Notes: generated by a model from the sequence alone, not told the origin. A stretch of 64,000 nucleotides of DNA from an uncultured bacterium (GCA_903904875.1 CAIVEC010000001.1:10147-74146), one strand, 5' to 3'. Numbered from the stretch's first letter, positions 16,558-56,306 are shown. Numbers and translations are program-made.

Positions 16558-17046
16558 ATGGCATTTGAAATTGAAAGAAAATTTTTGGTAAAAGATATAC
16601 CCATGGATATCGAGCAATTTCCTCATAAGGAAATCATCCAATGATATTTTAATGATCCGACTACCGGCAAAAGTGTCAGAGTCAGAAAAATCTGAGATGA
16701 ATATAAAGTCACCAGAAAAAAATGACATGGACTCGTTAGAGAAGAGATAGAAGTAGCGGTCAGCAAAGAGGAATTTGATCAGTTACGATTCCAAGTAGAA
16801 AATCATTTTCTCGAAAAGACTCGTTATGAAATACCCTATAATGGTATAGCTATAGAGCTCGATGTCTATAAAAATCTTCAAGGACTCAAAACCGCTGAAG
16901 TGGAATTCGGCAGCAAAAGAGATGCGAAAAAATTTATTGTTCCTGAGCGATTCAGTGAAGAAGTAACGAGAATGAGAGAAGCGACCAACGGATATATAGC
17001 CAATCACTGACTTGCTGATGAACTGATTGAATTAATGAAAAATTAA
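16558..17046 (+). CDS. CYTH-domain protein (CyaB/ThTPase-like triphosphate tunnel enzyme)
   Basis: MAFEIERKFLV start. VPE(CGA)FSEEVT fits the family PEWF...EVT. 489 nt, checked codon by codon. Confidence 0.8.
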
Positions 17047-19905: not shown

Positions 19906-20901
19906 TTAGGCGGCTTGTGCCGTTGGTGCTTTCTTCGACAATATTTCTTCAAAATATCCTGCTATGGTAGGATTTTCTTTTTTTACGGCGATTATGATCT
20001 GATCGATATTATCTCATTTCTTATTCTTTTTTCCTCGCTCCAGGATACTTTCTTCACTGGCTTTTCAACCTAGCACTTTTTCATAATCCTTGATATATTC
20101 TTTCTTGAACGTATCATCCATGGTTTTCCAGGAAAGGTTTTCCTGATCTGCTTGGTCTTTTGCTTCGGTTTCTTCTTTGTTCTTTTTCTTTATTTCGTCG
20201 ATGGAGTTCTGTTTATTATTTCAGGATGCCGGAGGATTATCGGATGGCGTTGATGGCGGAGTGGAATCTGGTTTTTTGTCAGATGATTGGTCTGGTTTTT
20301 CTTCTGATTTCTTTTCCTTCGTTCCTCAGGATACATCTTCGTTTTTTGGAATTTCTGCTTTAGGTGTTTCGCTTTCTGCGGGAGTTGAAGATCATCATGT
20401 CGCACCAAGGAATCCGAAACTTTTTTCTTGGATCTGATTGACCCAAGTATCTCATCCTGTTTCATGCGTATCATAGGTTTGGAAATCGAATCCTTTCTTT
20501 TTGCTGAATATCCTCGTAGCGTTCCGCATTCATTTGAACATCTTGCCTGGCGTATATAAGAGCTTTTTGAATGGCTGTCGGATTCACTGATTAAGTGCGC
20601 TTGCCATACCGGCACCTGCTATCATTACTGGTCTTCGTGTCACTGCAGAAGCTAAATTCATTGAACCTTTAAGAAATCTCTGATACCATTTCCCTTGTAC
20701 TTTGGAAAAATTGAGAAAATTATGAACTAAAGCATTTCCTGTTTGTTTGGTGACTTCTGCAATATTTTTGAGCCCGCTTATTCATTGTCTAGGAATATTT
20801 GCTCAAGCATTTAAAATCTCTCCTCATCGTCTGACAGGGGTTGCTATCGTATTTCCTACTCTCAATCACGCAGTACTGACTCATTGTTTAATTTTTCCCA
20901 T
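19906..20901 (-). CDS. hypothetical protein (331 aa) with low-complexity Ser/Pro/Lys linker
   Basis: Every codon checked: no TAA or TAG, about 15 TGA, 996 nt. The 141-aa ORF-track entry 20190..20615 is a different frame. Confidence 0.6.
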
Positions 20902-22371: not shown

Positions 22372-23916
22372 ATGAAAAAAAACTTTACTAAATTTTTGTT
22401 CATCGCAGTAGCGGTGATCGGCATGTTTTTTGCCAAATCAAGTCAGGGACAAACAGCTTATGTAAGCTTGGATACACTTAGCAATGGAGATACTATCCAT
22501 TATTGTACTTCACAGTATACCCAGGTAGTCCTTTACAAACCAACGGCAGCATTAACAAATCCTCAATGGGATATTCAACAGCCTTCATATCATAATGTTT
22601 TTGCTGATTCTGTTATCTTAAACACCACAAACGCTGGGACAATCTGGTTTTCGTCTGATCAAACATCAACGATAGAATTAAATTTTTTTCTTGTAGGAGT
22701 ACCAAATTCTCCAGGATTAGCTGATATCAATGCCTGTGGAGATATCTACAGTTACCCGCTTGATGCATTGAATCATAATACCGGGTCTTTTTATACCTGG
22801 TCAACGGGAGCAACAACACAAAACATTACTGCTACAAGTCCCGGGACGTACTGGGTACATATTGATGATGGGTGCGGTACGATATCAGATACTGCTATCA
22901 TTACTGCAGATCATACCAATGACGCTAATCTTGGTCCTGATCAAACGATTTGTCTGTATGATACTATCACGTTGACCAGCGGTAATACCAACATCACTAC
23001 CTATGCATGGTCAACCAGTAGTTCTGCTTCGACTATTACTGTTTCGCAAGCAGGGAGCTATAGTATCACAACAACTGACAATTCTGGTTGTGTAAGTACT
23101 GATACAATGAATCTCATTATTATCGTTCCCTATGATCAGCAGCAAATCTGCATGGTAGAATATGACACTCTTGCGTCCGAGAATCGTATCAATTGGGATC
23201 AGCATCTTGGCGAAAGAATTGACAGTATTAATATCGAAAAACAGATATCACTTACTGAATGGGAAAGTATCGGAGTTGTACCCAATACAATAACTAATTT
23301 TTTGGATACCAATAGTACTCCGCAAACCAATAGCGATTCTTACCGGATTCTTGTAATAGATAGTTGTGGCAACAAATCATCAGCTTCTGATGCTCATAAG
23401 ACCATTACGCTTTTGACGAGCTACACTCCAGGAACTGGGGTTATGGGATTTAATTGGTCTCACTATCTAGTCAATGGCATACTCGTTGCACCGACCTATA
23501 CTATCTATGGTATAGATACCAGTGGAAGTACTCATGTGGTTGGCACGGTTCCGGGAAGCCAGAATTATTATAACTGGACCACCCCCGATTTGAGCTATAT
23601 CAAATTCTTTGTCGGATTTACGCTTAGTTGCGGAGCCAAAACAGATTATCTGGTACGCTCAAACTATACAGGCAACCCTGCAGGAATTGACGAATATTCT
23701 TTGACTGACCAAATTCATGTATATCCGACACTGACCAACGGTCCGATAACTATCATGACCGATCTCTTTATCAAGGATATCAAACTTTATAATACTTTGG
23801 GACAAGTACTCTTGGTCACCAAGGAGAAAAAAATTGATATTCCTTACCATGGACTTTACTTTTTACACATCAACACCGATAAAGGTGTGATGGTAACTAA
23901 AATTATGATCCAATAA
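22372..23916 (+). CDS. secreted repeat protein with Bacteroidota-type T9SS C-terminal sorting domain
   Basis: Signal peptide MKKNFTKFLFIAVAVIGMFFAKSSQG. 3 x Y.WSTGATT..ITV..GTY.V...D..GC..DT repeats. Two Fn3-like ...SCGNKS modules. CTD VYPTLTNGPITI...LYNTLGQVL...GLYFLHINTDKGVMVTKIMIQ. 514 codons with no TGA. Confidence 0.85.
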   Translation: MKKNFTKFLFIAVAVIGMFFAKSSQGQTAYVSLDTLSNGDTIHYCTSQYTQVVLYKPTAALTNPQWDIQQPSYHNVFADSVILNTTNAGTIWFSSDQTSTIELNFFLVGVPNSPGLADINACGDIYSYPLDALNHNTGSFYTWSTGATTQNITATSPGTYWVHIDDGCGTISDTAIITADHTNDANLGPDQTICLYDTITLTSGNTNITTYAWSTSSSASTITVSQAGSYSITTTDNSGCVSTDTMNLIIIVPYDQQQICMVEYDTLASENRINWDQHLGERIDSINIEKQISLTEWESIGVVPNTITNFLDTNSTPQTNSDSYRILVIDSCGNKSSASDAHKTITLLTSYTPGTGVMGFNWSHYLVNGILVAPTYTIYGIDTSGSTHVVGTVPGSQNYYNWTTPDLSYIKFFVGFTLSCGAKTDYLVRSNYTGNPAGIDEYSLTDQIHVYPTLTNGPITIMTDLFIKDIKLYNTLGQVLLVTKEKKIDIPYHGLYFLHINTDKGVMVTKIMIQ

Positions 23917-25847: not shown

Positions 25848-26651
25848 TTAATTTACCCGTAACTCTCCTGGACTACCTCATTGTCCGACCTTCCAAACTC
25901 CTCCTGTTAATCATTCAATTACTAAATTATCACCAGAAACAATGATTCTTCGTGGAGTTGTTCATCAGGTAAGATAGAATCCTGAGTTGCTTTGTACTGC
26001 ACCACTAACATCTAACGCATATTCTGGTGAAGTTATTCATCCGATACCGACATTTAATCAAACATTGTAAATATTTGTACTATTGGTGATCCAGGAAGCT
26101 CAATCCCAAAATGGCGTTGCTCACAATCATATTCATGCTTGTAAAAATCCTGTAGCTCCTGTATCTCCTGTCGCTCATGTTGCTCCTGTATCTCCTGTCG
26201 CTCATGTTGTTCACATTGCTCATGTCGCTCACGTTACTCATATTGGTCATATCGCTCACGTTACTCATATTGGTCATATAGCTCATGTTGGTCCACTCAG
26301 TGCAAATCCACTAATGAAGTTGTATACTGCACCACTTGTAGATGCTATTAATTTTCCACTTGCATTAGTTCCAAGCACAGCAAAGTTTAGTAAACTGTCC
26401 ATCGTTACATCGCCTTTGAACCATGCGGTTCCGCTAGCACCGTTTAAAAAAACTCCTGTAGCAGAAGTAGAATTTCCGTCTAGAGTAAGAATAAGATTTC
26501 CTACAAGTATCGTCGCATTCTTTTGTGCAGTTTTAATTTCAAACGCTTTTACCATAAAGAGTATGCAGGACATTCAGAGGAAAAACAGCGTAGCTCATTT
26601 GATGAAGCTCATGCCTTTTCTTGATTGTAAGTTTTTGCTTGTAAAGCTCAT
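25848..26651 (-). CDS. collagen-like (G-X-Y) surface fibre protein
   Basis: Same N-terminal cassette as 23994..25703. About 16 uninterrupted GXY triplets (GAIGPIGVTGAIGPIGVTGATGAMGTTGATGDTG...) at about 26100-26285, about 10 of the Gly encoded by TGA. 804 nt. Confidence 0.8.
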
Positions 26652-26783: not shown

Positions 26784-28898
26784 TTAAATAAATATATCTC
26801 TCGGTTTTGCGCCGTCTTGTGGGCCGATGATTCCTTTCTCTTCCAGGATATCCATAATCCTAGCGGCGCGAGCAAATCCTACTCCGAGTTTTCTTTGTAA
26901 TAAGGTTGCTGAAGCTTTTCTCGTCTGCGAGATGACTTGGATCGCTCTTTCTACGAGCTCATCATCATTATCGCCATTATTGCTGAAGAGCTGTTGTCCT
27001 GCTTCAAGTTTGTTTTCAAGCAAACTGACTATTTCCTGGTTGTAGATATCCTCTTCCGTGAGTCCTCCCATGTATTTCGTTTTCAAGGTCATCACGACTT
27101 TTTCTATCTCTTCCGTTGAAATGAATGGCGCCTGGATTCTTGTCGGCGATTTCGTTGAAGGATCCATATAGAGCATATCTCATTTTCCGAGCAAGGTCTC
27201 CGCTCATTTTCTTCCAAGGATTGTTCTGCTGTCGATTTCTGATACTGTTCAGAATGCTATTCTCGTCGGCATATTCGCTTTAATCAATCAGGTTATGACA
27301 TCAACGGATGGTCTTTGTGTCGCGATGATCAAGTGAATTCCCACGGCACGAGCTTTCGCTGAAATGTGCGTGATGCAGTTTTCCACGTCTCTCTTGGATC
27401 TGGAAAGCATCATGGATGCAAGCTCATCTACTACAAATACAATGCGGAACATTTTTTCTCCGCCGGTTTTCTGATTGTATTCATCGATATTTTTCACTCT
27501 CGCTTCTTTGAGTGCGCCGTATCTTCTCTCCATCTCATGTTCTGTCCGCTTCAAAAGCTTCAACGCTTTTTCCGGCTCGAAGACTATCGGTGCGAGCAAG
27601 TACGGAAGTCCTGCGTACAATTCCAATTCCACCTGCTTCGGATCAACCATCAGGAATTTGAGTTCAGAAGGCGTATTTTGGTACATCAATGATAAGATGA
27701 AATCATTTATTCCCACAGACTTTCCGGAACCGGTCGCTCCTGCAACAAGCAGATGCGGCATAGATTCTAGGGTTTTGATGATTATAGATCCGTCAATCGC
27801 TTTTCATAATGAAAGATTATTGTCGGATTTTTTCATATCATTGGCAAAATCATTTGAGCTGAGGATATCGCCGAGACGCACCATAAGCGGCTTCGGATTT
27901 GGCAATTGAATACCTACACAATCCGTTCATGGGATCGGCGCGACGATACGAACGGATTTGGATTTGAGCGAAAGTGAAATATCGTTGGATAATCCTTCTA
28001 TCATTGATAATCTGATTCCTTCATCCGGTTTAATCCTTATTTGTACGATGGAAGGCCCGATATCGAATCACTCAATCATGATCGGAACATTGAATTCCAT
28101 GAGTTTATTCTGTAAGGCTTTCGCTTTTTCCATAAGGAACGTTTCGTCGATTGTCTCCGTTTGATCGGAATTGGTTTCAAGAACGGATACATTGAACGTA
28201 GGTTTCTCTCCAGAAAAATTAATGGTCGGCCTTATCTTTTTCTCTCTGACCTGTTCTTTCTCTTCTATCTTGCGCTGAAGTTTATCTTTTATCAATGATT
28301 TGATGAGTGAACGGGAAACCGGTCTTCAAAACTCTGGTTTCTCTTCTTCCTCTTCATCGTCTTCTTCGTATCTTGAAGATTTCTGTTTGAATGCCTTGGG
28401 TTTATTTTCGGTCTTGAGGCTGATATTCGGGAATGAAAAATTGAACGAATAAAGAATCCGTACAATAGCGAGGATTAATAAAATGATGATGAATGATTTG
28501 GTCGCGATAGCTTTGCCGCCGAACATCACCTGCAACAATGCGATGACGGGCCGAGAGATATATCATCCCAGTTTTTCGTATTTGGTCGCATCTCCATCTA
28601 TGATCGGGAAATTGATGATTGCTGAAATGATGATGATGATCACCATAAACTGTCTGATGAGTAATTTCATCAGATACCCTTTGGCCAGAATTATTATTCC
28701 TACGAGGAAACACAAAGCAAAAAAGACATAGAGTCCGATTTCTCCGAATGCGATGCTTGCATAGGTCCTGAGGAACATGATTACCGGTGATCCTTCCGCG
28801 AAATAGAGCGAAAAGAAAAAGAGTGATCCCAAGACCGTTAGGCTGATTCCGAGCTTGTATTTATTTAAGACTACGTTTTTTTTTCTTCTTCTGGACAT
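26784..28898 (-). CDS. ftsK: DNA translocase FtsK/SpoIIIE
   Basis: N-terminal TMs, PHLLVAGATGSGKSVGIN Walker A, VVDELA, C-terminal gamma domain ATLLQRKLGVGFARAARIMDILEEKGIIGP. Five fragments in one frame. 2115 nt. Confidence 0.9.
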
Positions 28899-33457: not shown

Positions 33458-33458
33458 T

Positions 33459-33543
33459 GGAAGGTTGGCAGAGTGGTCTAATGCGCACCGTTGGAAACGG
33501 TGTGTGCCGCAAGGTACCGGGGGTTCGAATCCCCCATCTTCCG
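33459..33543 (+). tRNA. tRNA-Ser (anticodon GGA), type II with long variable arm
   Basis: Acceptor GGAAGGT/ATCTTCC plus discriminator G. Anticodon stem CACCG/CGGTG with loop TTGGAAA. Variable arm. T-arm GGGGG-TTCGAAT-CCCCC. No encoded CCA. Confidence 0.9.
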
Positions 33544-33550
33544 AAGGATT

Positions 33551-33632: not shown

Positions 33633-35090
33633 CTACTCATCGAGTTTTTCGATAGCGAATTGGCGTGCCATATACGCTTCCGGACTCTTTTGTGTAAAAA
33701 TATCCAAGGCAAACATATAGGCATCCTTGAGATTCAGGAATGTCGCATTGGGAACAAGTGAAGGCATTCTCAGTGAGCTCCATATATCTTCCGGATGAGT
33801 CTCTGCTGAATTACAATACGACAACACCGGCCATGCTGTTCTGGCGGAAAGTGTTGGTCCGAGGCCGTTGATCATGCCGACTATGGCAATGATCACTGCG
33901 CCTTCCGGATACTTTGCATGCAATTCATTGAGTTTTTTGGCAGCTTTCAAAGGCATTTTGTGTCCTGAAATCACCACATCTTCAATGATTATGCTTGCAG
34001 GAATAGCTTTGAGGAATTCTTCATCTGCGAAACATTCAAGCTTATCATCAGGAGATCCTCTCCATAAGATGATCGGCTGTTTCGGGATGTAAAATTGGTT
34101 AACAAGCTGTGCTACGCGCATATAATTTTCCTGCACCTGAGCTAATGGATGACCATCACGGAAAGTCTGTTTTGATAATTCTTTCCAGTCGGCTGTCCTT
34201 AGTCTCCAGGAGTCATTGTCGATGACGTCAGCAACAACCAAGTTTCCAGCGGTATCGATTCCGAATTCGATTTTAAAATCGATTAAGCGGTAGCCCAATG
34301 TATTCCATGCTCCTTCCAACACCAGGAAAGTTTTGCGGGTGATTTCTTCGATTTTTACGAGCATATCAGGATTGGTAATAGTACTGCCGTCCATTGTTGT
34401 CAATGGAGTGATTTCCCAGGTCGGTTTCTTTGGATGTCGTAAAGTCCACTTTGAAATATCTTTCGGATTTTCGATCCAGGGATCATCAATGATTTTAATT
34501 GCCTCTTCAACAAGGTCTTCGATGGAAAGTTCCATGAGTTTTGTAATTTCCGGAAGCTTTTTTCCCACCAGTTTCTCGTTGATCTCTTTTAAAGATTTTT
34601 TAACATTCAGATATTTAATCAATTCTTCCTTATCCTTGGGAAGATAATCACGGAGATCCATGTCTCCTAATTTTCCTCCTTTGGTTTTCAGAAAGAGTTC
34701 AAATACCAGCTTATGGAAGCGATCTGGATTTCCTGGTTTGGCTAAATGAGGCATTCTTTCAAGGTATGATCCCGTAGCAAATCGACGGATAATTACTTCT
34801 AAGGGTATCATAGTACAATTTTTTGCCAAAATTTCTGTATCAGACAACTGTTCGATATACGCCGTACGGATACCTGCCTGTTCCAGCAATTCGAATATTC
34901 TGCTGGTTGTCTGAGTTGCACAAATGGCTTTTTTCTCCAGAGAACGGGTTTTTGAGGCATCATTGTCTGCCGTAGTTTCATTAGTGCTTTCCATGATAAC
35001 TAGATCATGGCGCTGGGCAACTGCCCAGATCTTTTTTGTTTTCCCTGATGTTAAGGGATTTTTGCCAAATTTCTTGAATTTTTTCTGCAT
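33633..35090 (-). CDS. bifunctional SAICAR synthetase / class II AIR carboxylase (PurC-PurE fusion, PAICS-like)
   Basis: 485-aa intact ORF. IPLEVIIRRFATGSY, DFKIEFG, ADVIDNDSWRL (PurC part). ISGHKMP, GMINGLGPTLS, IWSSLRMPS (PurE part). No TGA. Confidence 0.85.
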   Translation of the reverse strand: MQKKFKKFGKNPLTSGKTKKIWAVAQRHDLVIMESTNETTADNDASKTRSLEKKAICATQTTSRIFELLEQAGIRTAYIEQLSDTEILAKNCTMIPLEVIIRRFATGSYLERMPHLAKPGNPDRFHKLVFELFLKTKGGKLGDMDLRDYLPKDKEELIKYLNVKKSLKEINEKLVGKKLPEITKLMELSIEDLVEEAIKIIDDPWIENPKDISKWTLRHPKKPTWEITPLTTMDGSTITNPDMLVKIEEITRKTFLVLEGAWNTLGYRLIDFKIEFGIDTAGNLVVADVIDNDSWRLRTADWKELSKQTFRDGHPLAQVQENYMRVAQLVNQFYIPKQPIILWRGSPDDKLECFADEEFLKAIPASIIIEDVVISGHKMPLKAAKKLNELHAKYPEGAVIIAIVGMINGLGPTLSARTAWPVLSYCNSAETHPEDIWSSLRMPSLVPNATFLNLKDAYMFALDIFTQKSPEAYMARQFAIEKLDE

Positions 35091-35314
35091 AAGTTTTCTT
35101 TTTTTTTAATGATTATTAACGACTTTTTTTAATTTCACCAAGTATAGAAAAATGGCGGCTCTCGGCCTTTCGAATTTTTTATTTTCATATGTATATTGGT
35201 TTTAGTGATTTTTTTGTTTACAATGTTTGGATAATCTATCTATATACCATCAAATGTCAAGTCATCTAATTTTTACATAAAGAAAAACGTATCCTGAAAG
35301 GCAGAACACGTTTA

Positions 35315-36100
35315 TCAATGATTTCTCAGATCTAGTTTGATACCAAGATGAAGTGAGATCTTTTGGGTTTCGAAATTAAATTCCGGTCCGCAGATAAAGG
35401 TAAATCCATGATAGAAATCTTTGGAAGATCCAACTGAAATATGATCGTACCCATGTTTATTCACTTCCACTTCAGCACAGATACCTGCTTGCTGGAGATG
35501 ATATTCTTGGCGATAATAGTATTTCAACCAGGTATTTCCGATAGGTTTTACCTTAAAATACGTATCAATCAGCCAAGAAGGCGTAATTAATCCAAAGAAC
35601 ATAAAGGAACCCTTGCGATACTTGATCGTATGATCGCCTCTTGCGCTTTGAGGAAGGTGAAGATAACTTATATACATTTCTCCATTCAGATACCTGTATA
35701 CTTCTTCCAACGGATATTGTTGAGCATATGGATCCGCTTCCACGATCAATGCAAATCCCATACGAAGCTTGTTCCAATATCAGAACGTATTCGCTGCTTT
35801 TTTATCAAATGGAGCAGCCATAAGATCAAAATCTATACCATAGATCCTGGCACCGATCATAGAATTACGCTTGTACAATGAATGAAAATTGTATACCGTT
35901 TTTTCCAGATTTGTACGATCGTAGCACTTCCGCCAGTAGATTGTTTGATCAATTGTGGACTGATCCAAGAAACTTGGATTATTGAAATTCTGATCCATAG
36001 AGACAACCGAACCTTCTACGAGCGTAGAAGACCGTACCAATATTTGCGCATTACTTTGTAATGCAGCAAACATCACAAGTAATATCACAAATTTTTTCAT
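35315..36100 (-). CDS. secreted hypothetical protein, possibly beta-barrel (Bacteroidota-like signal peptide)
   Basis: Two ORF-track pieces joined by one TGA at 35780. MKKFVILLVMFAALQSNAQ. Alternating aromatic/hydrophilic pattern. 786 nt. Confidence 0.55.
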
Positions 36101-39871: not shown

Positions 39872-42754
39872 ATGAAGAAAAAATTAGCTTCTTGGAAATC
39901 AGGTTGAAAATATCTTGTGGTATTTTTGTTGGGAGTGCTTTTCACTTTTGCAATCACCAATGGATTCACACTGATCCACTCTACAGTAGAAAACGCTATC
40001 CAGTTTATCAGGCAGACGAAGTTCACTGATTCCGGTTTGGATACAGGTACCGTATTCGTGGATATCAATGCAGGATCCGGATATATCAACATCAATACCT
40101 GATCGCTCGGTAATTGAACATGATGGAATTCAAGGTTTTTGGCATTGGATGCTTTGGGAAATATAACCTATGCAGCAGAACAAGATCCGATTTTTTCATC
40201 AAGTCCTGTAAGCGGAATCACACTCACCAATATAAATACTTGGAACGCAGCATATAATCGGGTACAGACCAATTCATGAGACGCATTATATTTTATCAAC
40301 AATTCATGAGATTGGGTTAATATGAGTATGACTGGCAATTGGAATAGTGGATACAATCGAATAATTACTTCATGAGATATTTTACGAGATCGATATACCA
40401 TGAGTGGATTTTCCTCACTCAGTTGTTCTACAGGAGAAATTATAAAATACAATGGGTCTACTTGGATATGTAGTAGTGATTTGGTAGGATGAAGTGGATG
40501 AAGCAACTATTACACTACCGGACTCTATTTTGATAGCGGAACTAATCTACTGACCCTCTATGTCAGCGGTTATGGACCTGTCACAGGATATATCATTTTC
40601 TCCGGTATGGATAACTGGAATAGTGCGTATAATCGAATTAATAATTCAGGAACCTTTTTACGAAGCTGGTATACTACCACAGGAATTTATATAAATACTT
40701 TAGCGACTACAACCGGGCTTAATTGTTCAACATGAGAAATCGCAAAATACAATGGGTCTACTTGGGTATGTAGTAGTGATTTAATAGGAAGTTGAGGTGG
40801 ATGAAGCAACTTTTACACTACCGGACTAGATTTTGATAGCGGAACTAATCTACTGACTCTCTATGTCAGCGGCTATGGACCTGTCACAGGATTCATCCTT
40901 TTCTCCGGTATGGATAACTGGAATAGCGCATACAATCGAATTAATAATTCAGGAACCTTTTTACGGAACCGATATACTAATTCATGAACCTTTTTACGAA
41001 ACTGGTATACCACTACAGGTATATACATCAATACGTTAGCAACAACTACTGGTCTTACTTGTTCTGCATGAGAACTTATAAAATACAATGGATCTGCTTG
41101 GGTATGTAGCGGGGATTTGGTAGGAAGTTGAGGAATTAGTTATTGGACTGCAATAGGAGACTGAACATATACATGAATACAATATCTCGGATGAGATATC
41201 GTCACTACATGATTTATTACCAAATGAATATGAGTGAGTGCTCTATGAATATATGCTACAGCGATGGGATATCAAGCAACTGCTAATTGATCTTATTCTA
41301 TCGCTATGGGATATCAGACAACTGCTAATTGATCTTATTCTACAGCTATGGGAAATACTACACAAGCTAATTGAGATTATTCTACAGCGATGGGATGGTG
41401 AACAATTGCTAGTGGAAATTATTCTACAGCGATGGGATATAATACAAAAGCTTATATAATGGGTGCTACATCTTTATGATGGAATACAACGGCTAGTTGA
41501 AGCTTTTCTACTTCAATGGGACAAAATACACAAGCAATATGACCAAGTTCTACCGCTATGGGACAAGGTTCAATGGCTATTTGAGATTCATCTACGGCGA
41601 TGGGATATCAGACACAAGCTAATTGAGATTATTCTACAGTGATGGGAAGGGACACAATTGCTAGTTGACAATATTCTACTGCGATGGGACGTCAGACAAT
41701 TGCTAATGGACTAAATTCTACGGCGATTGGATTGTGTACACATGCTAATTGAATTGATTCTACAGCAATGGGAAATATAACTACAGCAAACTGAGATGCT
41801 GCTACAGCAATGGGAACTCAGACAATTGCTAATGGACTAAATTCTACAGCAATGGGTGCAACGACACATGCTAATTGAACTGATTCTACGGCGATGGGAA
41901 ACAATACAATTGCTAGTGGATATATTTCTACTGCGATGGGAAGTTGGACAATTGCTAATTGAAATTCATCTACAGCGATGGGATCTTATACACAAGCCAT
42001 TTGAGATTATTCTACTGCTATGGGAGATGAAACAACTGCTAATGGAATTGGTTCTATTGCTATGGGATATCAAACAACCGCTGATGGAACTGGGTCTTTT
42101 GCTATTGGAAATGGAACAACCGCTAATTGAAATGGTTCTATTGCAATGTGATATTATACACATGCTAATTGAGATAGTTCTACTGCCATGGGCGATCATA
42201 CAATTGCTAATGGATATGCCTGTACGGTAATGGGGGCTTCAAATGAAATAACGACATGATCAGATTATTCCAGCATATTAGGATGACAATGAAATAAAAT
42301 ATATTGAGTATTAAATGCTTTTATCGGTGGAGGATGAAGTAATATCATAAGTTGAAGTTCCTCAATGTATTCAGTTATTCCTTGATGATCATTTAATCTT
42401 ATAGAAAATGCACAACATAGTTTTGCTTGAGGGAAAAATGCACAAGCATTGCATGATTATACTTTTGTACGAAATGGAGTTGGAGGTAGTACGGTGTTTC
42501 AATCAGAGCATTCAAATAGTTTTATTATTAATGCACCTGGAGGAGTAGGTATCGGAACTAATAATCCACAAGGAGATCTTCATGTTGCAGGAAGCGGGGT
42601 CGTGGTTTTTGAGCCACAAGACACTAATCCTCAATGAGTATGAACAGGATGTACCGTCACGTGATCAGTAGTATATGCTAAGACATCCAATAATCTTTGT
42701 TATTGTAACTGATCATGACGAACAAAATTAGTTGGACTTAATTGCGCATTCTAA
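39872..42754 (+). CDS. 960-aa surface fibre: tandem ~100-aa repeats, Hep_Hag/YadA-head repeats and beta-helix-like tail
   Basis: Checked line by line. Signal-anchor N-terminus. 2.5 x ~300-nt tandem units (40495-41130). About 25 STAMG..T.ANG.. repeats with TGA at the ANG Gly. Ends LCYCNGSG(CGA)TKLVGLNCAF. Confidence 0.85.
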
Positions 42755-43098: not shown

Positions 43099-44640
43099 AT
43101 GAAAACGCAGAAATTTTTCTTTTTTTTGTTGGTTTTCAGCATAAGCTGGATATCAACTAGAGCAACTATTCATCATGTCTATCTGGATAATACCTATAAT
43201 ACAGAATGGCATACGTTTTGCGGGGGAGTGAATGATACTGTCATCCTTCACAAACCAATAATTGCCATGAACAATATTACTTGGGTTACTCCGTTAGGTC
43301 TAATGATTTTTGCTCAGGACACCGTGATTGTGCCGTACAATAATCAAGGGGATTGGTATTTCAGTTCCACCGAAGTAGGAAAGGATGTTTATGTGTATTT
43401 CATTTCTACTCCGCCAGTTCAGCCGGCTTGCATGGCTCATGATACGAGCTTTTGTACAGCAAGTATCAATTGGACCTTGAATGCACAAAACACCAGTACA
43501 TTTTCTACCTATCTCTGGGACAATGGTGCAACTACTAAAAACAGAATAGTCACTACGGTCGGCACCTATTGGGTACAAATCACTAATGCCTGTGGTCAGA
43601 GAACTGATACGCTTCACATCACTCAGTCCAACCCTAATGCTCCTCATCTTGGAGCTGATCAGAGTTTTTGCTGGGGAAGTGGTACGATTCTCAATCCAGG
43701 AAGTACTAATGTAACTTCGTATCAATGGTCAACTGGTGCTATAACACCAACAATCACCGTAGATACGACTGGTACGTACTGGGTATATGTAATTGATGGC
43801 AATGGCTGCAGCGGCAGAGACACGATTCAAGTCACCACTTTGATTCCTATCGGTGAAGAAGAATGTTATGTAGGATTTGATACGCTCACATGGAAAAATG
43901 ATGTTAATTGGACGGTAAATTTACCCGGTAATGCTGACTCCGTACGGATCTACAAAGAGACTTCACTGAATGTGTGGACGCTTATCGGAACTGTTTCCAA
44001 GACCGTTGATCATTTCCTGGATATGGCATCTCTACCACAACAACAGAGCTATAGTTACAAAATAGCTCTAGTGGATACTTGCGGTAATGAGTCTAATCTC
44101 TCATCATTCCATACTACAATCTCACTATTGAGTGCTTACGACCAACCCAGTAACACGTATGGGTTTACATGGTCTGCATATGATGGGATTATAGTAAATG
44201 ATTATTATCTGTATGGTATCTATGGTAACGGAACTGTTACCCAAGTGGGCAGTGTACCTGGTAATCAGTTTATGTTCAATTACCTTAATCCTGATCCTGG
44301 CTTTGTAAAATATTTCGTGGGTTTTGAAACTCCGGATTGTGATGCAAAGACCAATATTGTGGTAAAAAGCAATTGGGTACTGAGAGATTCTCTACTTACC
44401 AGTGTTCATGAAGTGGGAATCATTCCGTTCGCTGTTTATCCTAATCCAGCCAGCTCACAATTGACGATCAATATCGGAGTTGAAGACTTCCAAGTGAATG
44501 TGCTTACCACGATCGGACAGGTAGTCTTGTCTGAACACAATGTGAAAACATTGGACGTAAGTAGTTTATCCAAAGGTCTGTACATTATGCAGGTAACTGC
44601 TAACGGTACAACCAGCGAAAAAAAGATTATTATCAATTAA
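43099..44640 (+). CDS. secreted repeat protein with T9SS C-terminal sorting domain (paralog of 22372..23916)
   Basis: Signal peptide and the same architecture as the paralog. CTD VYPNPASSQLTINI...GLYIMQVTANGTTSEKKIIIN. 513 codons with no TGA. Confidence 0.85.
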   Translation: MKTQKFFFFLLVFSISWISTRATIHHVYLDNTYNTEWHTFCGGVNDTVILHKPIIAMNNITWVTPLGLMIFAQDTVIVPYNNQGDWYFSSTEVGKDVYVYFISTPPVQPACMAHDTSFCTASINWTLNAQNTSTFSTYLWDNGATTKNRIVTTVGTYWVQITNACGQRTDTLHITQSNPNAPHLGADQSFCWGSGTILNPGSTNVTSYQWSTGAITPTITVDTTGTYWVYVIDGNGCSGRDTIQVTTLIPIGEEECYVGFDTLTWKNDVNWTVNLPGNADSVRIYKETSLNVWTLIGTVSKTVDHFLDMASLPQQQSYSYKIALVDTCGNESNLSSFHTTISLLSAYDQPSNTYGFTWSAYDGIIVNDYYLYGIYGNGTVTQVGSVPGNQFMFNYLNPDPGFVKYFVGFETPDCDAKTNIVVKSNWVLRDSLLTSVHEVGIIPFAVYPNPASSQLTINIGVEDFQVNVLTTIGQVVLSEHNVKTLDVSSLSKGLYIMQVTANGTTSEKKIIIN

Positions 44641-47691: not shown

Positions 47692-48378
47692 ATGATGATG
47701 AAAAAAATTCTTGGAATAGCAGCACTCATAATGATCCTCTGAGTCAGTACGGCGGCAGAAATCAGATTTTCTCCTGATAGTGGAAATATAGGAAAAGGAT
47801 GTTTAGTGACAGCGGATATTATCGTAAATACCGATAGTAGAGATATAGCCGCAACAGACATAATGATAGAAAGTTCTCTTGATTTTGTGGACTTCGTGCC
47901 TACGAAGATGTTTCCGTATTTTCTTCCTCCCCAAGTAAAAGATAGCATGATCCATATTGTCGGATTCACTATCGATCCCAAACATCGTGTCAAAGGGAAA
48001 TGAAGTATCGGAACATTGTATCTGAAACAAAAAGGATATGATGATAGCGATGGAACAATAAAATTATATTTCAAAAAGAAATGAGATACCACAGATTCCA
48101 ATCTTAGTGTCGCAGGAGGTATAGATATCCTCGATACGGTAGGAACAGCATATTATCAATTTACTGATAGCGGAGCTTGTGCACATTATGCAGGAGAAGC
48201 TATCAACTGATGAATAGCTAATGCATCGCTCAATAGCGTGATAACAAAAATCAATCGCAATCAGCGAATGCAAAAAATATTCAATCGAAAAACACTCATA
48301 GCGTTTGCGTGATTATTGATCGTGATAACATTTTTATTTCTTTATTATAAAAACACTAAGCAATGAAAAAAAAGGTAG
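47692..48378 (+). CDS. cohesin-like domain protein with C-terminal TM anchor
   Basis: Signal peptide, then EIRFSPDSGNIGKGCLVTADIIVNTD...IMIESSLDFVDFVP, then a C-terminal TM. 687 nt. Confidence 0.7.
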
Positions 48379-50885
48379 TACAGTATAAATTATGAATATT
48401 TGTATGTACTCTTCTCGGAGGAATATTTTCTCTCGTTGCTGGACAATATTATTATTTTGATACCTGAAGCACCAATTATCCGCTTCAACAATGATGTAAT
48501 GAAACCTTGAACATAAGAGCAAATACAGAATCTCATCCGTATGGAGCAAGAGCATGACTTTTACGTCTGCTGTTTGATCCGCTCCATTTTTCGTATTCCA
48601 CATCTTCGCTTGCCAGCGTCTTGCAGACAGATTTATTTCTTGCAAGCACACAGACATTTCTGATGTATACCAACCCTTCGCTTTCACCGACATGGGTAGG
48701 TACCGGTACAACTATTTTGCAGATTGATCGTTACAATCCTAGCAGTGATTATATCTGAAGTAATGGGCTGTATGGAACGTTAAAATTTGTACCGTTATAT
48801 AATGCAACTGATTATACGTGAACTTTTGCTATGATCTACAATGGCGATACGGTTAAAACATCATTGAGTATGATATGAGGTACTAATATTATTATTTCTG
48901 GACATCAAATACCTCGCCTTACATGATATTATTATATTACTCAAGCGCCTTGTGTAGTAGATACTACAGCACCTAGTGTTGCGATACTTGTACCAAGCTG
49001 AGGAACAAAACAATCTCATCTTAGTGGAATAGCACTTACGCTTAATGAAAATGGTGGATCAACAGATGTACCGTATGTATGGACAGGAGGAATTCCCGGT
49101 ATCGGTATATGGACAGGAAATAGTTGGGGACTCACCAACCAATATGGAGTGAATTTTGATACCTTCCAGATACGGATTTCTGGAAATGGGACAGGAAGAT
49201 ATTTTACGGGAGGAATGTTCTCTCCTTCGTGAACGCTTTCCACAGTGGCTAATGGAACCACATGGCAATTCCGCGACAAAAATTATACCGTAGATATCAG
49301 CGGTTCAGAACTCTTTGATTATGGTATAGAAAAACCGATTATTATCTCTGGAAATGTAAGAGACCGAAATAACAATCTCAGAACTTTCAGTCTGAATTTC
49401 AATCCTGCTGTAGGACCATGGCTTATTCCATGATCAGCTAATCCTGCATGATGAGCAACCTGGATAGGAACGGCAGTGCCGATACAATTGGGAATAGCAG
49501 ATGATTGGGCATGAGTAAACTCATGAACTATTCGTGTCACTATACAATGAATTTGATGAACGACATACTGACCGTATATTTTCTCATGAAACAATCTCAA
49601 CCTTTCTGGTGTACGATGAATCGCTAATCAGCCTGATTATTATATCACTATTTCCGGTCATGTTGTATTCCCTACATCATGAACTATCCAAGTGAGCGTC
49701 TATGCGGAAGACATGGAAGGCAATGCAAGCAGTATCTCTCCGTATAGTTTCTGAACAAGGCCGTCATGCGGAGATCTTGGATGTTGCAATGAGGTATATA
49801 TTCAGACAGGAATAAATATTCCGTTCCTCTATAGCGGATTTACCCTCAATGTTTCTGGTGGACTCGACGCGTCATTTACGATGAGCGGAAGTACAGGAAC
49901 TTTGTATTGTGGTACAGAAAATCAGGGAATGGATATCTACAGGTGAACAGAAGCAAATACCTGAAGTGCAATATATGTCAGCTACTTTGATCTGCCAAAT
50001 TTAGTTCTCTCATGACATAATGTCAAAGCTGTGCTTTCAGGAAAAACACTCTATCTCCAAAAAATATATGTACCGCCAATCACCTGATGATGTATAGGTA
50101 CTTGTCCTGGTGGATGAGGTGGTGGTTGATGATGAGGAAACATTATTAGAGATGATTGTGAGCTTCCAAGCAATTTTGAATGTGCAAATACTGGAGGAAT
50201 AGATAATTCCCCAAGTTATTATGATACCACATGTTGTGCTGCTCCTATGACAGGACACGGTGCAGCAGAGTGTGATATTTCTTTTCCAGCATCATATAGC
50301 CAGGAAATCAGTGAAGCATACCAACGATGATATAATCTCAATATTACGAACAAATGCCCTATCGTTGAAGCTCGTCTAGATGATACTATTGTGAGAAAGG
50401 AAGTCGCCAAAATGATGACGATGTTTACGATCCAGATCATAGGTATTTTCCCTGATACGCATAAAGCGTGATGTGACGAATTCACGGATACGAAATATCT
50501 GACCGATGAAATGAAATTCTTCACCAAGACTGCTTGTCAGCTTGATCTCATGGGACTCGAACCTAACGGAAATACCGTAAAAAAGACATTTGAACCTAAT
50601 GATCCTGTCGATAGGGCGCAGTTTGGTACTATCCTTTCGAGATTGATTTATGGTGACGTATATAATGTCTATAGCGGTGAAACATATCAACGATATGAAA
50701 AACATCTCCAAGTATTGTTTGAAGATGGTATCATAAAAAAAATACAGGATCCGTTTATGCTAGAAAAAAGAGCTCGAATATTATTGATGCTAAAAAGAAC
50801 TGATGATAGTAATTTCATCGAACAATACCGTCTTGTAGCTCCGGCTCACAACGGCGCACTTTCTCTCTTGGAAAACGTTTGGTAA
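48363..50885 (+). CDS. 840-aa surface protein: cohesin-like plus Ig-like domains, poly-Gly, Cys-rich linker, SLH-like anchor
   Basis: Checked line by line. Overlaps the previous gene by 16 nt. GIADDWAGVNSGTIRVTI. Run of 10 Gly at 50109-50138. DDCELPSNFECANTGGIDNSPSYYDTTCC. SLH-like end. Confidence 0.75.
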
Positions 50886-52768: not shown

Positions 52769-53413
52769 CTAATCGATTTTTCTTGCGACAAAACCCATCC
52801 ATGTTTTATTATACGGATCGGCAAAGATTCTTTTATTGATGATTTCAAATCCATGATTCTCGAGTGTCTCCTGAAGTTCTTGTTCAGTCCGATGTTTTCT
52901 GAATCTAATCATTCTTTTATTATAATCATGTTTCGTCTCTAGCCCTTCCCTGGACACCTCCGCTTTTGTAGTGCTCAAGAAGATAAGACCATTTGGTTTC
53001 AATATCTTTTTCACTTTTTTGAATACTTCCTGAATCTTGTCTTTGGGGAAGAGATGGATGAATGCACTCATATACACCGAATCAAATGTCTCTTGGAATT
53101 CATGCTGCAAAAAATCCGCCTCAATGATATCTGACATAGGGTTTCTTGTTTTCGCATACGTTGTCATTTCATGAGAAAGCTCAACACCAGTACACAAAAA
53201 CCCCTTATCATTGAAACACTTAACGGCTATCCCGACAGCGCAACCTATGTCCAAAACACTGTTTCCAGGCTGTAAGTATGTTGCGCAAATCTCTATAGCT
53301 TCTACCGTCATCGGGATTAAACTTCCGACACGAGACTCATACTCATCAGCAAGCGTATCATATGCTTGTTTGTGAATACTATCATCAGATTTATGTTTGA
53401 GGTTTCTTTTCAT
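52769..53413 (-). CDS. class I SAM-dependent methyltransferase
   Basis: VLDIGCAVGI motif I. 214 codons with no TGA. Confidence 0.8.
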   Translation of the reverse strand: MKRNLKHKSDDSIHKQAYDTLADEYESRVGSLIPMTVEAIEICATYLQPGNSVLDIGCAVGIAVKCFNDKGFLCTGVELSHEMTTYAKTRNPMSDIIEADFLQHEFQETFDSVYMSAFIHLFPKDKIQEVFKKVKKILKPNGLIFLSTTKAEVSREGLETKHDYNKRMIRFRKHRTEQELQETLENHGFEIINKRIFADPYNKTWMGFVARKID

Positions 53414-54589: not shown

Positions 54590-54716
54590 AATGAATAATG
54601 AAAGATGAAAAATGAATAATGTCGGATTTTATCGTGTATAAACTATTGTAGTTTACAATAGCTGATAAAAAACAATACAATCATTATTCATTATTAATTA
54701 TTAATTTTTCATTAAA
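54590..54716. repeat. intergenic hairpin element copy 7 (core reversed)
   Basis: Arms aatgaataatgaaagatgaaaaatgaataatg / cattattcattattaattattaat. Core tcggattttatcgtgtataaactattgtagtttacaatagctgat. Confidence 0.75.
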
Positions 54717-54787
54717 TTTGTAGGGATTTACGTCCTGATTTCTATCCGAAAAACTTCCTTGACTTTTTTTGTGAAATAGGTAATTTT

Positions 54788-56200
54788 ATGTTTCAAAATA
54801 AAAAATCTAAAATAAAAAAAGATATGATACAAACCAAAACATTTATTCGCGCTACGGGAAAGTATATTCCTGAGCGTGTCGTGCCAAACTCGGATTTTGA
54901 AGATCCAGAGAAATATGAATTCTTCATATCCAATGACAAAAAAGAAGAACGCTCCAATCTTGAAATTGCCGACAAACTTGCAGAAATCACGGGTATCAAA
55001 GAACGACGATATTTTGATGAGCATACGACAACTTCAGATGCAGGCTATCGTGCCGCAAAAAACGCTTATGATGCTTCCAGAGATGATCCACAAAAAACCG
55101 ATGTCTTCATTTTCGCTCATAATTTCGGTGACATCCGTTATGAAGAGGATAAGTTTGATTGTGTGCCCTGCCATGCAGCAAGAATCAAGAATAATCTCGG
55201 TGTAGAAAACCCTTATACGGTTGCTTATGATATCGCTATCAGCGGTGCTTGTTTGATAAGGGATCTCACGAAACTAAAGGAGTATCTTGCTTTGGGGCCT
55301 AATGATCTTGTCGTAGAAACTGAGAATTATGAGCTCACTGGTATCTATGAAAAAGCTCAGCGTGCTTTTTCTCTTCTTGACGTGCAAAAGGAAAGCTTAC
55401 ATCGGATTATTGTGATTCATATTATTTATGAAAAATTATGTCTTGCAGCCAAAGTAAAAAGAAGGCTGGAAACAGCTAATCCCGATGCGCTTGCTTTTGA
55501 TGTGCTTTTCGGCTGTCCTGGGTGGCTCCATAGTGTAAGCATTGCTGACGCATTCATCACCTCAGAGAAAGCAAAAAAAATCATGGTTATCGGTGCTGAA
55601 GCATTATCACGAGTATCTGATTATTCAGATCCGGATAGCCAGATCTATTCTGATGGAGGAGGCGCCATCTATCTTGAGGGACGAAAAGTAGACGTTTCTG
55701 AGACCCTGGATGATAGTTTTTTCATCTTTGCATCTGTGGGTGCCGGTATGAATCGTAATGTCATGGTGTACTCCAAAAAGTATGGCATCTTAGGTTATCT
55801 TGTATGTTCAGATACCACATCGAAGTATCTCAATCTGCTCTGGATGGATAGATCGTATAATTCTAAGATCGCTGGCTTATATCTCAAAATAAAGGGATCA
55901 ACTGTCTTTGGATATGCAAAAGGGAAAGTTCCTGAGCTTATCAAACAGCTGATGGACAAGCTTGGAATAAACATCAATCAAGTAATCCGCATGTATCTTC
56001 ACCAGGCTAATGAGACATTGGATATAGCAATGACAAAGGGCGTCTTCGAACTTTGTTGTGGCAGAAAAGACTATTCCACTGATCCTCCTACCCCTAGCTA
56101 CATCATTCCTGATGGGCTCGTTCCTATGACCATTCAAAAGTATGGCAATAATTCCGTTGCTACACTACCTATACTGTTGGATGAGTTTGGATTGCAGTAA
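54788..56200 (+). CDS. FabH-like beta-ketoacyl synthase III family protein with ~90-aa internal insertion
   Basis: ITGIKE(CGA CGA)YFDE, AFDVLFGCPGW active-site Cys, IGAEALS(CGA)VSD, HQAN, GNNSVATLP. 470 codons with no TGA. True start may be ATG 54824. Confidence 0.8.
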   Translation: MFQNKKSKIKKDMIQTKTFIRATGKYIPERVVPNSDFEDPEKYEFFISNDKKEERSNLEIADKLAEITGIKERRYFDEHTTTSDAGYRAAKNAYDASRDDPQKTDVFIFAHNFGDIRYEEDKFDCVPCHAARIKNNLGVENPYTVAYDIAISGACLIRDLTKLKEYLALGPNDLVVETENYELTGIYEKAQRAFSLLDVQKESLHRIIVIHIIYEKLCLAAKVKRRLETANPDALAFDVLFGCPGWLHSVSIADAFITSEKAKKIMVIGAEALSRVSDYSDPDSQIYSDGGGAIYLEGRKVDVSETLDDSFFIFASVGAGMNRNVMVYSKKYGILGYLVCSDTTSKYLNLLWMDRSYNSKIAGLYLKIKGSTVFGYAKGKVPELIKQLMDKLGININQVIRMYLHQANETLDIAMTKGVFELCCGRKDYSTDPPTPSYIIPDGLVPMTIQKYGNNSVATLPILLDEFGLQ

Positions 56201-56217
56201 AAAAACTATTGTTATAT

Positions 56218-56248
56218 TACTCCGGTTATTTACCGGAGTTTTTTTTCT
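56218..56248 (+). terminator. intrinsic terminator after the FabH-like gene
   Basis: tactccggt-tattt-accggagt followed by 8 T. Confidence 0.7.
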
Positions 56249-56250
56249 AC

Positions 56251-56306
56251 AAAAAAACCACCCCGCTTTGGAGTGGTTTTTCTCTATTTCAGTAATAAAT
56301 TTATTT
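56251..56306. repeat. 56-bp direct repeat, copy 1 (hairpin terminator plus stop codon)
   Basis: aaaaaaaccaccccgctttggagtggtttttctctatttcagtaataaatttattt. Identical except 1 nt to 56901-56956. Confidence 0.85.

Follow-up and report, generated by a model that had tools for sequence, protein, structure and literature searches.

The stretch of DNA analysed here, referred to as the window, is 64,000 nt long and comes from an uncultured bacterium of the clade Absconditabacterales (SR1) (CAIVEC010000001.1:10147-74146). Between the divergent rlmL and the convergent PAP2 gene it carries an open reading frame (ORF) of 470 codons at 54788-56200 (+), which contains no TGA and encodes a FabH-like condensing enzyme of the ketoacyl-acyl carrier protein (ACP) synthase III (KAS III) type. 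The initial annotation had taken this ORF for a standard-code gene inside a recoded genome, and had read it as a recent acquisition that was not yet adapted or was non-functional. The first part was confirmed: the TGA-free ORF is real, the gene behaves as a standard-code gene, and resident decoding would place Trp on invariant Arg. The second part did not hold. Our data indicate that the gene very probably belongs to a conserved and selected class of standard-code genes and is not a recent import. One genome appears to hold genes in two incompatible codes, with the FabH-like gene and at least two other families written in the standard one. The evidence throughout is comparative and comes from a small number of related lineages in lake metagenomes, with three to four gene families sampled.

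The code of Absconditabacteria, in which UGA is Gly and CGA and CGG are Trp, was described by Shulgina & Eddy 2021 (PMC8629427), and the housekeeping genes of the window match it exactly, so the premise of a recoded genome stands. Under table 11, dnaK, leuS, rlmN, rlmL and others are ORFs broken up by TGA. Long ORFs emerge if the stops are TAA and TAG only, and TGA then makes up 29% of Gly-family codons (430/1489, 44 ORFs). When the CGA and CGG codons of leuS were masked as X and the product was aligned to LeuRS of T. thermophilus, 14 of 19 fell on Trp and none on Arg. By eye, CGA or CGG also stands at invariant Trp of TyrRS (GGSDQ-W-GN) and of sigma-70 (VW-W-IRQ). The codon frequencies in the window (CGA 50, CGG 42 and TGG 65 per 10,000) are those of an advanced stage of reassignment. 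As currently understood, the resident decoders are Trp-type tRNA(UCG) and tRNA(CCG), tRNA-Gly(UCA) and a tRNA-Arg(GCG) for CGU and CGC only, with no tRNA-Arg(ACG) (PMC8629427).

The FabH-like gene does not match this code. Given window usage, the probability of no TGA in its 29 Gly codons is ~4e-5, and TGA takes 0 of 145 Gly codons over four full-length orthologues (29, 41, 37 and 38). Within a 67-sequence KAS III alignment, 62 standard-code homologues were compared column by column. The CGA-CGA pair encodes R61 and R62, and a third CGA encodes R263; the initial annotation had placed all three on conserved arginines, and the columns hold Arg in 62/62, 61/62 and 62/62 of these homologues, respectively. 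The TGG at residue 234 lies on a column with Trp in 62/62. Residues 56-70 read TGIKERRYFDEH with Arg under standard decoding and TGIKEWWYFDEH with Trp under resident decoding (GIKEWWYFDEH). Among the orthologues, the R61 and R62 columns hold CGA in 5/5 and 4/5, the remaining one being AGG, and the R263 column holds CGA, CGA, AGA, CGA and TTA, with CGC in the close relative L087. Trp at these columns in recoded relatives would, by the initial annotation, have spoken against a standard-code gene; CGA and AGG, AGA or CGC were found instead, and never TGG.

The codon exchanges within the family follow the same pattern. In the family codon alignment, 8 of 12 columns with CGA or CGG (CGR) also hold AGA, AGG, CGT, CGC or AAA and none holds TGG, and the conserved Trp columns have TGG in every sequence. 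CGR was never exchanged with TGG in the FabH-like genes; it was exchanged with other Arg codons seven times and with Lys codons four times. In contrast, eleven neighbour genes on the same contigs exchanged CGR with TGG 28 times, with Arg once (Arg and Lys together twice), and TGA with GGN 105 times. The contrast in CGR partners (TGG:Arg, 28:1 in the neighbours and 0:7 in the FabH-like genes) is significant (Fisher p=1e-6). The neighbours swap CGR with TGG and TGA with GGN; therefore, the relatives are recoded too and the FabH-like gene is the exception in each of them. The 92%-identical L087 gene differs from that of the window by 34 synonymous changes, including AGG<->CGG, CGA<->CGC (at R263) and six GGN<->GGN, none of them to TGA, whereas the flanking genes show 12 GGN<->TGA, 2 CGR<->TGG and no CGR<->Arg. 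Thus, CGA and CGG still come and go at Arg sites as if synonymous, and TGA is still excluded. This current upkeep contradicts the notion of a gene not yet adapted.

In its choice of Arg and Gly codons the gene, like its class, is mildly distinct from the genome, with more CGY and less GGA. Codon optimisation for high expression was considered as a cause of TGA avoidance and rejected, because the bias of the FabH-like gene (TAC 0.08, TTC 0.47) is opposite to that of dnaK (0.73, 0.90). The conservation of the CGA-CGA pair might have marked a special signal, but it is unremarkable, given that the codon is identical across all four sequences in 28% of conserved columns. By the code-agnostic criteria of Liu et al. 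2023, the gene has no in-frame TGA and ends with a non-TGA stop (TAA). It does not give the same protein under both codes: its five CGA/CGG codons are Arg in the standard code and Trp in the resident one. Across the family a single TGA occurs, at 1378-1380 of L006 (alignment column 402), where all others have Leu or Ile (NAT-G-DEAM compared with NAT-L-DEAM); the database gene call stops there. A nonsense mutation, making the gene a pseudogene in L006, a Leu-to-Gly change or an error in a low-coverage contig of 1.5 kb could each account for it.

The true start of the gene is almost certainly ATG 54824 and not ATG 54788, because the latter lies only 2 nt past the conserved -10, with the transcription start downstream of it, and because all orthologues begin at the position of 54824. 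The promoter motif TTGACT-N16-TAyTTT is present upstream of all six FabH-like orthologues, and the recoded resident genes rpoD, PAP2 and 19906-20901 carry the same sigma-70 promoter type. A Bacteroidota-type -7 promoter (TAnnTTTG) was sought upstream of the class genes and gave a few matches; the conserved element is the canonical TTGACT-N16-TAtttT, the resident type. A scan of the leaders with Rfam found no known RNA element, and the sole match was tRNA-Ser. The duplicated terminator of the initial annotation consists of two hairpins, which are different intrinsic terminators of convergent genes: 56219-56239 belongs to the FabH-like gene, and the second terminator, at 56248-56286, is the end of the PAP2 gene. 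The hairpin element that was said to bracket the gene on the other side exists as an AT-rich inverted repeat at 54590-54713, with 32-nt arms that are 81% complementary and built from AATGAATAATG units; an inner hairpin lies at 54637-54667. The repeat coincides in part with the leader of the divergent rlmL, and L087 does not have it. T-rich strings of the CATTATTCATTTTTCAT type precede other recoded genes too (26784-28898, 16558-17046 and 1099-1875), so that this genome may have a motif that recurs in 5' leaders, or else a small repeat element.

The predicted product is a rearranged KAS III. Pfam ACP_syn_III (PF08545) matched residues 237-299 of the 470-aa ORF with 53.6 bits (cut-off 24). ACP_syn_III_C (PF08541) scored 20.6 bits, under its cut-off of 26.6, and PDB alignments still span the HQAN and GNNS regions. 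The PDB sequence search gave FabH matches down to E = 8e-20 in three separate blocks, leaving query residues ~111-233 unmatched. The AlphaFold2 (AF2) model has a pLDDT of 94.2 and a pTM of 0.94, and Foldseek aligned it to solved FabH structures with E = 2e-20 and a target-normalised TM of 0.75-0.79 (thiolase fold). The Cys231-His393-Asn442 triad is invariant in the 67-sequence alignment, as are R61 and R263, and R62 is at least 90% conserved. Compared with FabH/KAS III of E. coli (1HN9, 6X7R), A. aeolicus (2EBD) and H. influenzae (3IL3), the window protein is alike in thiolase fold, ACP_syn_III domain, triad and the TGIxERR and LSR arginines, and differs by about 130 extra residues, a duplicated segment before the catalytic Cys and a moved hairpin. 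It departs from the canonical length (about 310-360 aa) and order in its 458 aa, its ~120-residue insert and the moved hairpin. The duplication and the relocated hairpin are common to all family members and therefore point to a single family origin. We take the TGIxERR and LSR arginines to line the CoA/ACP channel, with R61 and R263 as the presumed equivalents of E. coli R36 and R151. The Foldseek matches include entries of the mtFabH R46A/R161A mutant, which is consistent with this role. The channel arginines of a KAS III are present only under standard decoding; the resident code gives Trp. We noticed no fab or acp genes in the window; the condensing activity is a prediction.

The closest relatives outside the rearranged family are members of a 360-aa 'AHNFGD' KAS III family of standard-code bacteria (L007-L086, L091-L105), at 35-49% identity. 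The best matches among them include Bacteroidales, Kapabacteria, Desulfobacterota and Ancylomarina. The two families have AHNFGD, GCPGW, KMNG, HQAN, GNNSVAT and FASVGAGMN in common; the 360-aa family differs in its canonical order and length, its standard-code hosts and the lack of the insert. The FASVGAGMN hairpin, which is normally C-terminal as in these relatives, is placed mid-chain in the window protein. There was no sign that the 360-aa family donated the gene later than the common ancestor of the rearranged family. The positions of these features, and of further class genes discussed below, are listed in Table 1.

Table 1. Features of the FabH-like gene and of other TGA-free genes, in window coordinates.
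Feature	Position	Strand	Details
Sigma-70-type promoter	54759..54786	+	-35 TTGACT 54759-54764, 16-nt spacer, -10 TAATTT 54781-54786; read from sequence
A-rich leader without Shine-Dalgarno	54793..54823	+	A = 0.73 in -30..-1
CDS of rearranged KAS III (FabH-like) condensing enzyme	54824..56200	+	458 aa, TAA stop; 0 TGA, 2 TGG, 4 CGA, 1 CGG
CGA-CGA, R61-R62	55004..55009	+	TGI(K)ERR motif (ITGIKE-RR-YF)
Family-specific insert	55154..55525	+	duplicated strand-helix before catalytic Cys: copy 1 residues 111-141 without Cys, copy 2 residues 193-234 ending GCPGW
CGG, R194	55403..55405	+	LHRIIVIH; orthologue codons CGG, CGG, CGT, CGT, CGC
Catalytic Cys231 codon	55514..55516	+	GCPGW; invariant in 67 homologues
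CGA, R263	55610..55612	+	ALSRVSD
CGA, R287	55682..55684	+	variable basic column; orthologue codons CGA, CGT, CGA, AAA, CAA
FFIFASVGAGMNRNVMVY strand-turn-strand	55718..55771	+	mid-protein here; C-terminal in 360-aa relatives (L091-L105 proteins)
Catalytic His393 codon	56000..56002	+	LHQAN; invariant in 67 homologues
Catalytic Asn442 codon	56147..56149	+	GNNSVA; invariant in 67 homologues
Intrinsic terminator of FabH-like gene	56219..56249	+	ACTCCGGT-loop-ACCGGAGT then T8; hairpin 56219-56239
PurC-PurE (SAICAR synthetase / AIR carboxylase) fusion	33633..35090	-	0 TGA, 10 TGG, 2 CGA (one on invariant R102), A-rich leader
Secreted protein with type IX secretion system (T9SS) C-terminal sorting domain	43099..44640	+	0 TGA in 36 Gly codons, 15 TGG, 1 CGG, TTGACT-N16-TATACT promoter, A-rich leader
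T9SS-tail paralogue	22372..23916	+	0 TGA in 35 Gly codons, 9 TGG, 1 CGG, A-rich leader

The gene has been in these genomes for a long time. Further members of its family were found in L001/L002, L003/L004, L005, L006 and L087, in assemblies from JGI, ENA, NCBI and Logan; the near-identical contig sets L001/L002/L089 and L003/L004 each represent the same population and are uninformative. A search of 5.8 billion proteins returned six clusters of the 455-aa family (54-100% identity), all on recoded contigs, and the next matches were canonical KAS III at 35-44% identity over about half the length, the best outside the family reaching 41-43%. The search for a donor lineage thus came back empty, with no close standard-code donor and no standard-code copy of the 455-aa architecture among the 5.8 billion proteins. 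Among the matches listed for species-representative genomes there were only canonical KAS III of 320-360 aa (33-40% identity), and no standard-code copy of the rearranged family appeared in the metagenome contigs searched. A phage or viral reservoir was considered and set aside, as the viral contigs searched contained no relatives; the divergence of one alignment was too high for such a scan. Orthologues with 54-65% protein identity and an intact ORF are present in at least four other recoded lineages, and the gene always stands beside the same neighbours, in the order rlmN-rlmL-gene-PAP2-dnaK or Tex-gene-PAP2-dnaK. This arrangement was identical in independent assemblies from the four sources, which contradicts a chimeric assembly. 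In an NCBI record called under the standard code, every neighbour is fragmented and the FabH-like gene is intact. Pairs of orthologues have dN/dS of 0.16-0.32 and dS of 0.9-1.5, with synonymous sites near saturation. A non-functional gene is hard to reconcile with this dN/dS, the intact triad and the confidently predicted KAS III fold.

A recent import, unadapted or dead, or an assembly chimera could account for the standard-code syntax, for Arg and Gly codon choice unlike that of the genome and for standard-code KAS III being the nearest relatives outside the family. The intact ORF and its conserved neighbourhood, seen in at least five lineages, the four assembly sources, a G+C (0.40) like that of the genome (about 0.39), the missing donor and the absence of mobile-element genes or repeats flanking the gene make this explanation highly improbable, and a recent arrival is further contradicted by the high dS and the resident-type promoter. 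The FabH-like gene is likely an old import, because its nearest relatives are the standard-code 360-aa KAS III family, with Bacteroidota among the best matches.

The rates of divergence around the gene vary widely. FabH-like identity among lineages (54-65%) is lower than that of the neighbour genes (68-94%). In close comparisons of the window with L087 (51880-58960) and L172 (29172-39512), dS is 0.03 for rpoD, 0.09 for ORF 35312-36100, 0.13 for the FabH-like gene and 0.25-0.28 for PurC-PurE and the SDR gene, and it reaches 0.6-0.84 for leuS (0.69), dnaK, rlmN and rlmL. This mosaic from gene to gene points to frequent homologous recombination among strains. Low dS was tried as a hallmark of the class, on the basis of the FabH-like gene (0.13 compared with 0.6-0.8 in its flanks, against L087), and rejected, since it was not reproduced in PurC-PurE. 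Between L001 and L005 the FabH-like gene is not less divergent than rlmL.

The FabH-like gene is one of five TGA-free ORFs in the window, together with two proteins with T9SS C-terminal sorting domains, a PurC-PurE fusion and a methyltransferase. The PurC-PurE orthologues in three more recoded lineages (64-92% identity) have no TGA either, and TGA takes 0 of 91 PurC-PurE Gly codons. Their Trp columns have TGG in 40/40 cases (10 columns in four sequences), and all 11 CGA/CGG columns exchange with Arg codons only. The window gene has CGA at residue 102, where Arg is invariant in 40 homologues. In lineage L170, nine neighbour genes have 28 CGA and no CGG, and PurC-PurE (8001-9467) has four CGG, all at Arg columns, and no CGA. 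This lineage may leave CGG unassigned to Trp or may simply not use it, and the state of CGA and CGG reassignment seems to differ among close Absconditabacterales lineages. A tRNA-Ser(GGA) lies at 33458-33544 (+) between the SDR gene and PurC-PurE, and it likewise adjoins PurC-PurE in L172 (9547-9633).

The T9SS-tail family has about 100 full-length members (~515 aa), whose source labels are SR1 or Absconditabacterales. Four further genes of the family at three loci have no TGA and 26-35 GGN each, compared with 22-25 TGA in the adjoining IF-2, and the genes are kept in synteny between IF-2 and trigger factor. TGA is absent from about 190 Gly codons of the family in total. In an alignment of 64 members, W occurs 593 times and R three times in the Trp columns. 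In recoded genes R would be expected at well over half of such positions, because databases translate CGA and CGG as R and these codons make up 59% of Trp-type codons elsewhere. The family shows every testable feature of the class, with CGA and CGG nearly unused.

The class also has a leader of its own kind. The A content of the leader is 0.60-0.87 in all FabH-like and T9SS-tail orthologues compared with about 0.33 in the neighbours, and there is no Shine-Dalgarno sequence. In 95 genes from nine recoded loci, an A content of at least 0.6 in the 30 nt before the start was found in 12 of 16 TGA-free genes and in 1 of 79 others (Fisher p=4e-11); many of the 16 are orthologous within three or four families.

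Some genes stand at the edge of this class or beside it. The methyltransferase (52769-53413, minus strand) is dependent on S-adenosylmethionine, has Pfam Methyltransf_23/11/25 and CMAS-like matches and lies between rlmN and rlmL. It has no TGA in 10 Gly codons, one CGG and a leader A content of 0.27; it is present in L087 and absent from L001, where rlmN adjoins rlmL, and it looks like a genuinely more recent acquisition. A phosphoribosyl pyrophosphate (PRPP) synthase gene in lineage L167 (17881-18843, plus strand) has no TGA in 23 Gly codons, a TTGACT-N16-TATATT promoter and an A-rich leader. Beside PurC-PurE lies a gene for a 262-aa protein with a Bacteroidota-like signal peptide (MKKFVILLVMFAALQSNAQ), which has two TGA in the window (35312-36100, minus strand), TGA in 0/16 in L172 (7007-7792, plus strand) and two to three CGA/CGG codons, and may be a borderline or decaying member. 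In contrast, two tandem paralogues on the minus strand (23994-25703 and 25848-26651), with near-identical N-termini MSFTSKNLQS[K/R]KG..MSFIKGATLFFLGMSCILFM, have 41 and 23 TGA and a G+C at third codon positions of 0.20-0.25. Similar Gly-rich, putative surface proteins are encoded by ORFs 39872-42754 (54 TGA) and 48363-50885 (34 TGA).

Taken together, the comparisons indicate that the FabH-like gene is a long-resident and selected gene under a resident-type promoter, and that its predicted product is a KAS III-type enzyme with an intact active site. Selection treats CGA and CGG as Arg and UGA as forbidden; therefore, the product on which fitness depends would be made by an apparatus that reads the standard code. 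The resident apparatus, as known, is unsuited because it would place Trp at three invariant arginines and would have no reason to avoid UGA. We favour translation outside the resident decoding system, in the host, with a rough probability of 0.35-0.4. The class genes would be transcribed by the epibiont from the resident-type promoter, and their transcripts or DNA would cross the cell contact into a standard-code host or prey cell. The host apparatus would then translate them, with CGA and CGG as Arg and with a stop or stall at UGA. The priming ketosynthase, the purine-pathway enzymes and the surface-directed proteins could drive the host towards synthesis of those lipids and nucleotides which the lineage is unable to produce. 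We suggest, likewise tentatively, that perhaps 10% of Absconditabacterales genes are kept in the standard code, with the A-rich leader in common, because they are translated by the host, and that the T9SS tail is a secretion signal of the host type. Absconditabacteria are reported to depend on host cells, as epibionts or predators, and to have no biosynthesis of lipids or nucleotides (PMC8080830; PMC8406219). The content of the class fits this direction: an enzyme that primes fatty-acid synthesis, enzymes of the purine pathway and proteins whose secretion signal is typical of Bacteroidota.

Several points weigh against translation in the host. To our knowledge, no transfer of RNA or DNA from an epibiont of the candidate phyla radiation (CPR) into its host has been reported, and the window encodes no obvious export device. 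The promoter is of the resident type, so that transcription in the epibiont is the natural reading, and the RNA polymerase of a Bacteroidota host is not expected to use this type. If the T9SS tails mean a Bacteroidota host, the version with mRNA transfer is therefore forced. Standard-code Patescibacteria commonly have PurC-PurE fusions of this type, which presumably act in the cytoplasm of the bacterium itself. The class may not be sharply bounded, given the L167 PRPP synthase: its four CGA lie on mixed columns (one Arg-like in RRASA and one Phe/Tyr-like in GA..V-x-A), and its L169 counterpart is apparently arranged differently. This gene may be passing from one syntax to the other. By FabH-like identities L004 is the most divergent lineage, whereas the neighbours place the window as the outgroup, an incongruence that could reflect a rate change or an old exchange. 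The tRNA scan of the window gave only tRNA-Ser(GGA) and no informative decoder, and the tRNA identities of the clade are provisional, CGA/CGG decoding never having been measured in vivo (PMC8629427).

We rank host translation above a temporal switch of decoding, the latter above tolerated or ambiguous Trp/Arg, and recurrent replacement from an unseen reservoir below these. A switch would mean that the bacterium itself reads these mRNAs in a standard-like manner in a particular state, with the A-rich leader marking the regulon. The tRNA pool might change, with an undetected Arg-type tRNA for CGA/CGG and with tRNA-Gly(UCA) and tRNA-Trp(UCG) off, or tRNAs and release factor 2 of the host might enter while the cell feeds on host cytoplasm. 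The resident-type promoter kept in all lineages, a common leader that looks like a control element and PurC-PurE as a normal cytoplasmic enzyme of other Patescibacteria all suit this explanation, and switching between decoding regimes in a single genome is known from phages. The provisional tRNA identities (PMC8629427) and the code-11-compatible phages of the clade (PMC10746230) leave room for it. However, no Arg-type decoder of CGA/CGG has been reported for Absconditabacteria, and 16 recoded loci yielded only tRNA-Ser(GGA) and tRNA-Arg(CCU), with no relevant tRNA or release factor gene at any locus examined. The two regimes would also need clean separation in time, as mixed pools would harm both LeuRS, with its 19 CGA/CGG, and the FabH-like enzyme, with three on invariant Arg. 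A switch of this kind is therefore unlikely, and ordinary resident decoding is slightly less likely again. In the latter case Trp, or a Trp/Arg mix from an ambiguously charged tRNA(UCG), would be tolerated and TGA avoidance would be unrelated. Given the strong rearrangement of the enzyme and its higher rate of evolution compared with its neighbours, its canonical CoA-binding arginines might be dispensable; tRNA(UCG) presumably retains C35 and G36, which we take to be the main ArgRS identity elements, and ambiguous decoding is compatible with the present comparative data. Resident decoding nevertheless needs repeated changes between Trp and Arg or Lys at the 8 of 12 CGR columns at a dN/dS of about 0.2, even between 95%-identical proteins, and a mixed reading at three essential Arg sites would leave few correct molecules. 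It also leaves unexplained the TGG-only Trp, the absence of TGA and the syntax of PurC-PurE with CGA on an invariant Arg.

The home of the genes could instead be a standard-code replicon, such as a phage, a plasmid or the prey, from which recombination would keep replacing the chromosomal copies, so that these would not drift to the resident code. Uptake of host DNA is known in these bacteria (PMC8080830), and code-11-compatible phages target them (PMC10746230). The dS of neighbouring genes spans 0.03-0.84 in a strain recombination mosaic with a drop at the FabH-like gene in one pair, and the relationships of this gene among lineages differ slightly from those of its neighbours. Such replacement is improbable, considering that no standard-code 455-aa copy was found in the proteins, the listed genome matches or the metagenome and viral contigs searched, that low dS is not specific to the class, and that locus, promoter and leader are kept across lineages. 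Translational selection alone, with TGA and CGA/CGG avoided as poor codons at very high expression, the strong promoter and A-rich leader as marks of such expression and CGA at Arg being incidental, is more doubtful still. The TGA share is indeed low in some conserved genes (S1 3%, DnaN 0-6%, ClpB 6% and dnaK 15%, with a mean of 32%), and class promoters are near consensus. The FabH-like gene, however, does not follow dnaK in its choice of codons for Tyr, Phe, Asn and Ile, it has five CGA/CGG codons, which optimisation ought to have removed and which lie on Arg columns, not Trp columns, and the complete lack of TGA in the Gly codons of the FabH-like, PurC-PurE and T9SS-tail families is far under 3-15%.

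Shulgina & Eddy inferred one code per genome without gene-level exceptions (PMC8629427), and such exceptions are seen here in the FabH-like gene and its class. A close known case is that of the code-11-compatible phages predicted to infect Absconditabacteria/Gracilibacteria as code-25 hosts, which avoid in-frame TGA and use other stops, and which were read as expressible under either code (Liu et al. 2023, PMC10746230). T9SS-tail genes are dual-compatible in the same way, with no TGA, TGG for Trp and almost no CGA or CGG (0-1 CGR each), and would nearly give the same protein under both codes. The FabH-like and PurC-PurE genes are not, as their CGA and CGG are right only under the standard code. 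Unlike those phage genomes, the genes described here are chromosomal and have conserved synteny, resident promoters and purifying selection. Stop-codon-recoded phages reportedly have standard-compatible early genes and recoded late genes, as Ivanova et al. 2014 and Borges et al. 2022 are said to have described. These phages likewise hold two regimes that split gene sets within one genome; there, the host is standard, the deviation comes from the phage and only a stop codon is concerned, whereas here the genome is cellular and the conflict is over sense codons (Arg or Trp). In the literature we found no report of a recoded bacterium whose chromosome keeps conserved genes in the standard code, and no paper linking Absconditabacteria with T9SS-tail proteins.

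Our study challenges the assumption of one code per genome: judging from selection patterns, CGA and CGG are read as Trp in most genes and as Arg in a conserved subset that excludes UGA. If the finding is true, it offers a way to spot a special regulon in uncultivated CPR bacteria from sequence only, and the reasons for code change and the manipulation of hosts by epibionts become testable. Annotation with one code would then mistranslate both classes of gene, and databases, which give CGA and CGG as Arg everywhere, are wrong for most genes here. It would also concern recoding as a genetic firewall, as natural recoded organisms seem to keep genes that cross it. If host translation is true, the deviant code would be a built-in label that separates 'self' from 'host-directed' genes, and mRNA or DNA would have to pass from a CPR epibiont into its host. 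Two codes used at different times inside the bacterium would be of similar novelty.

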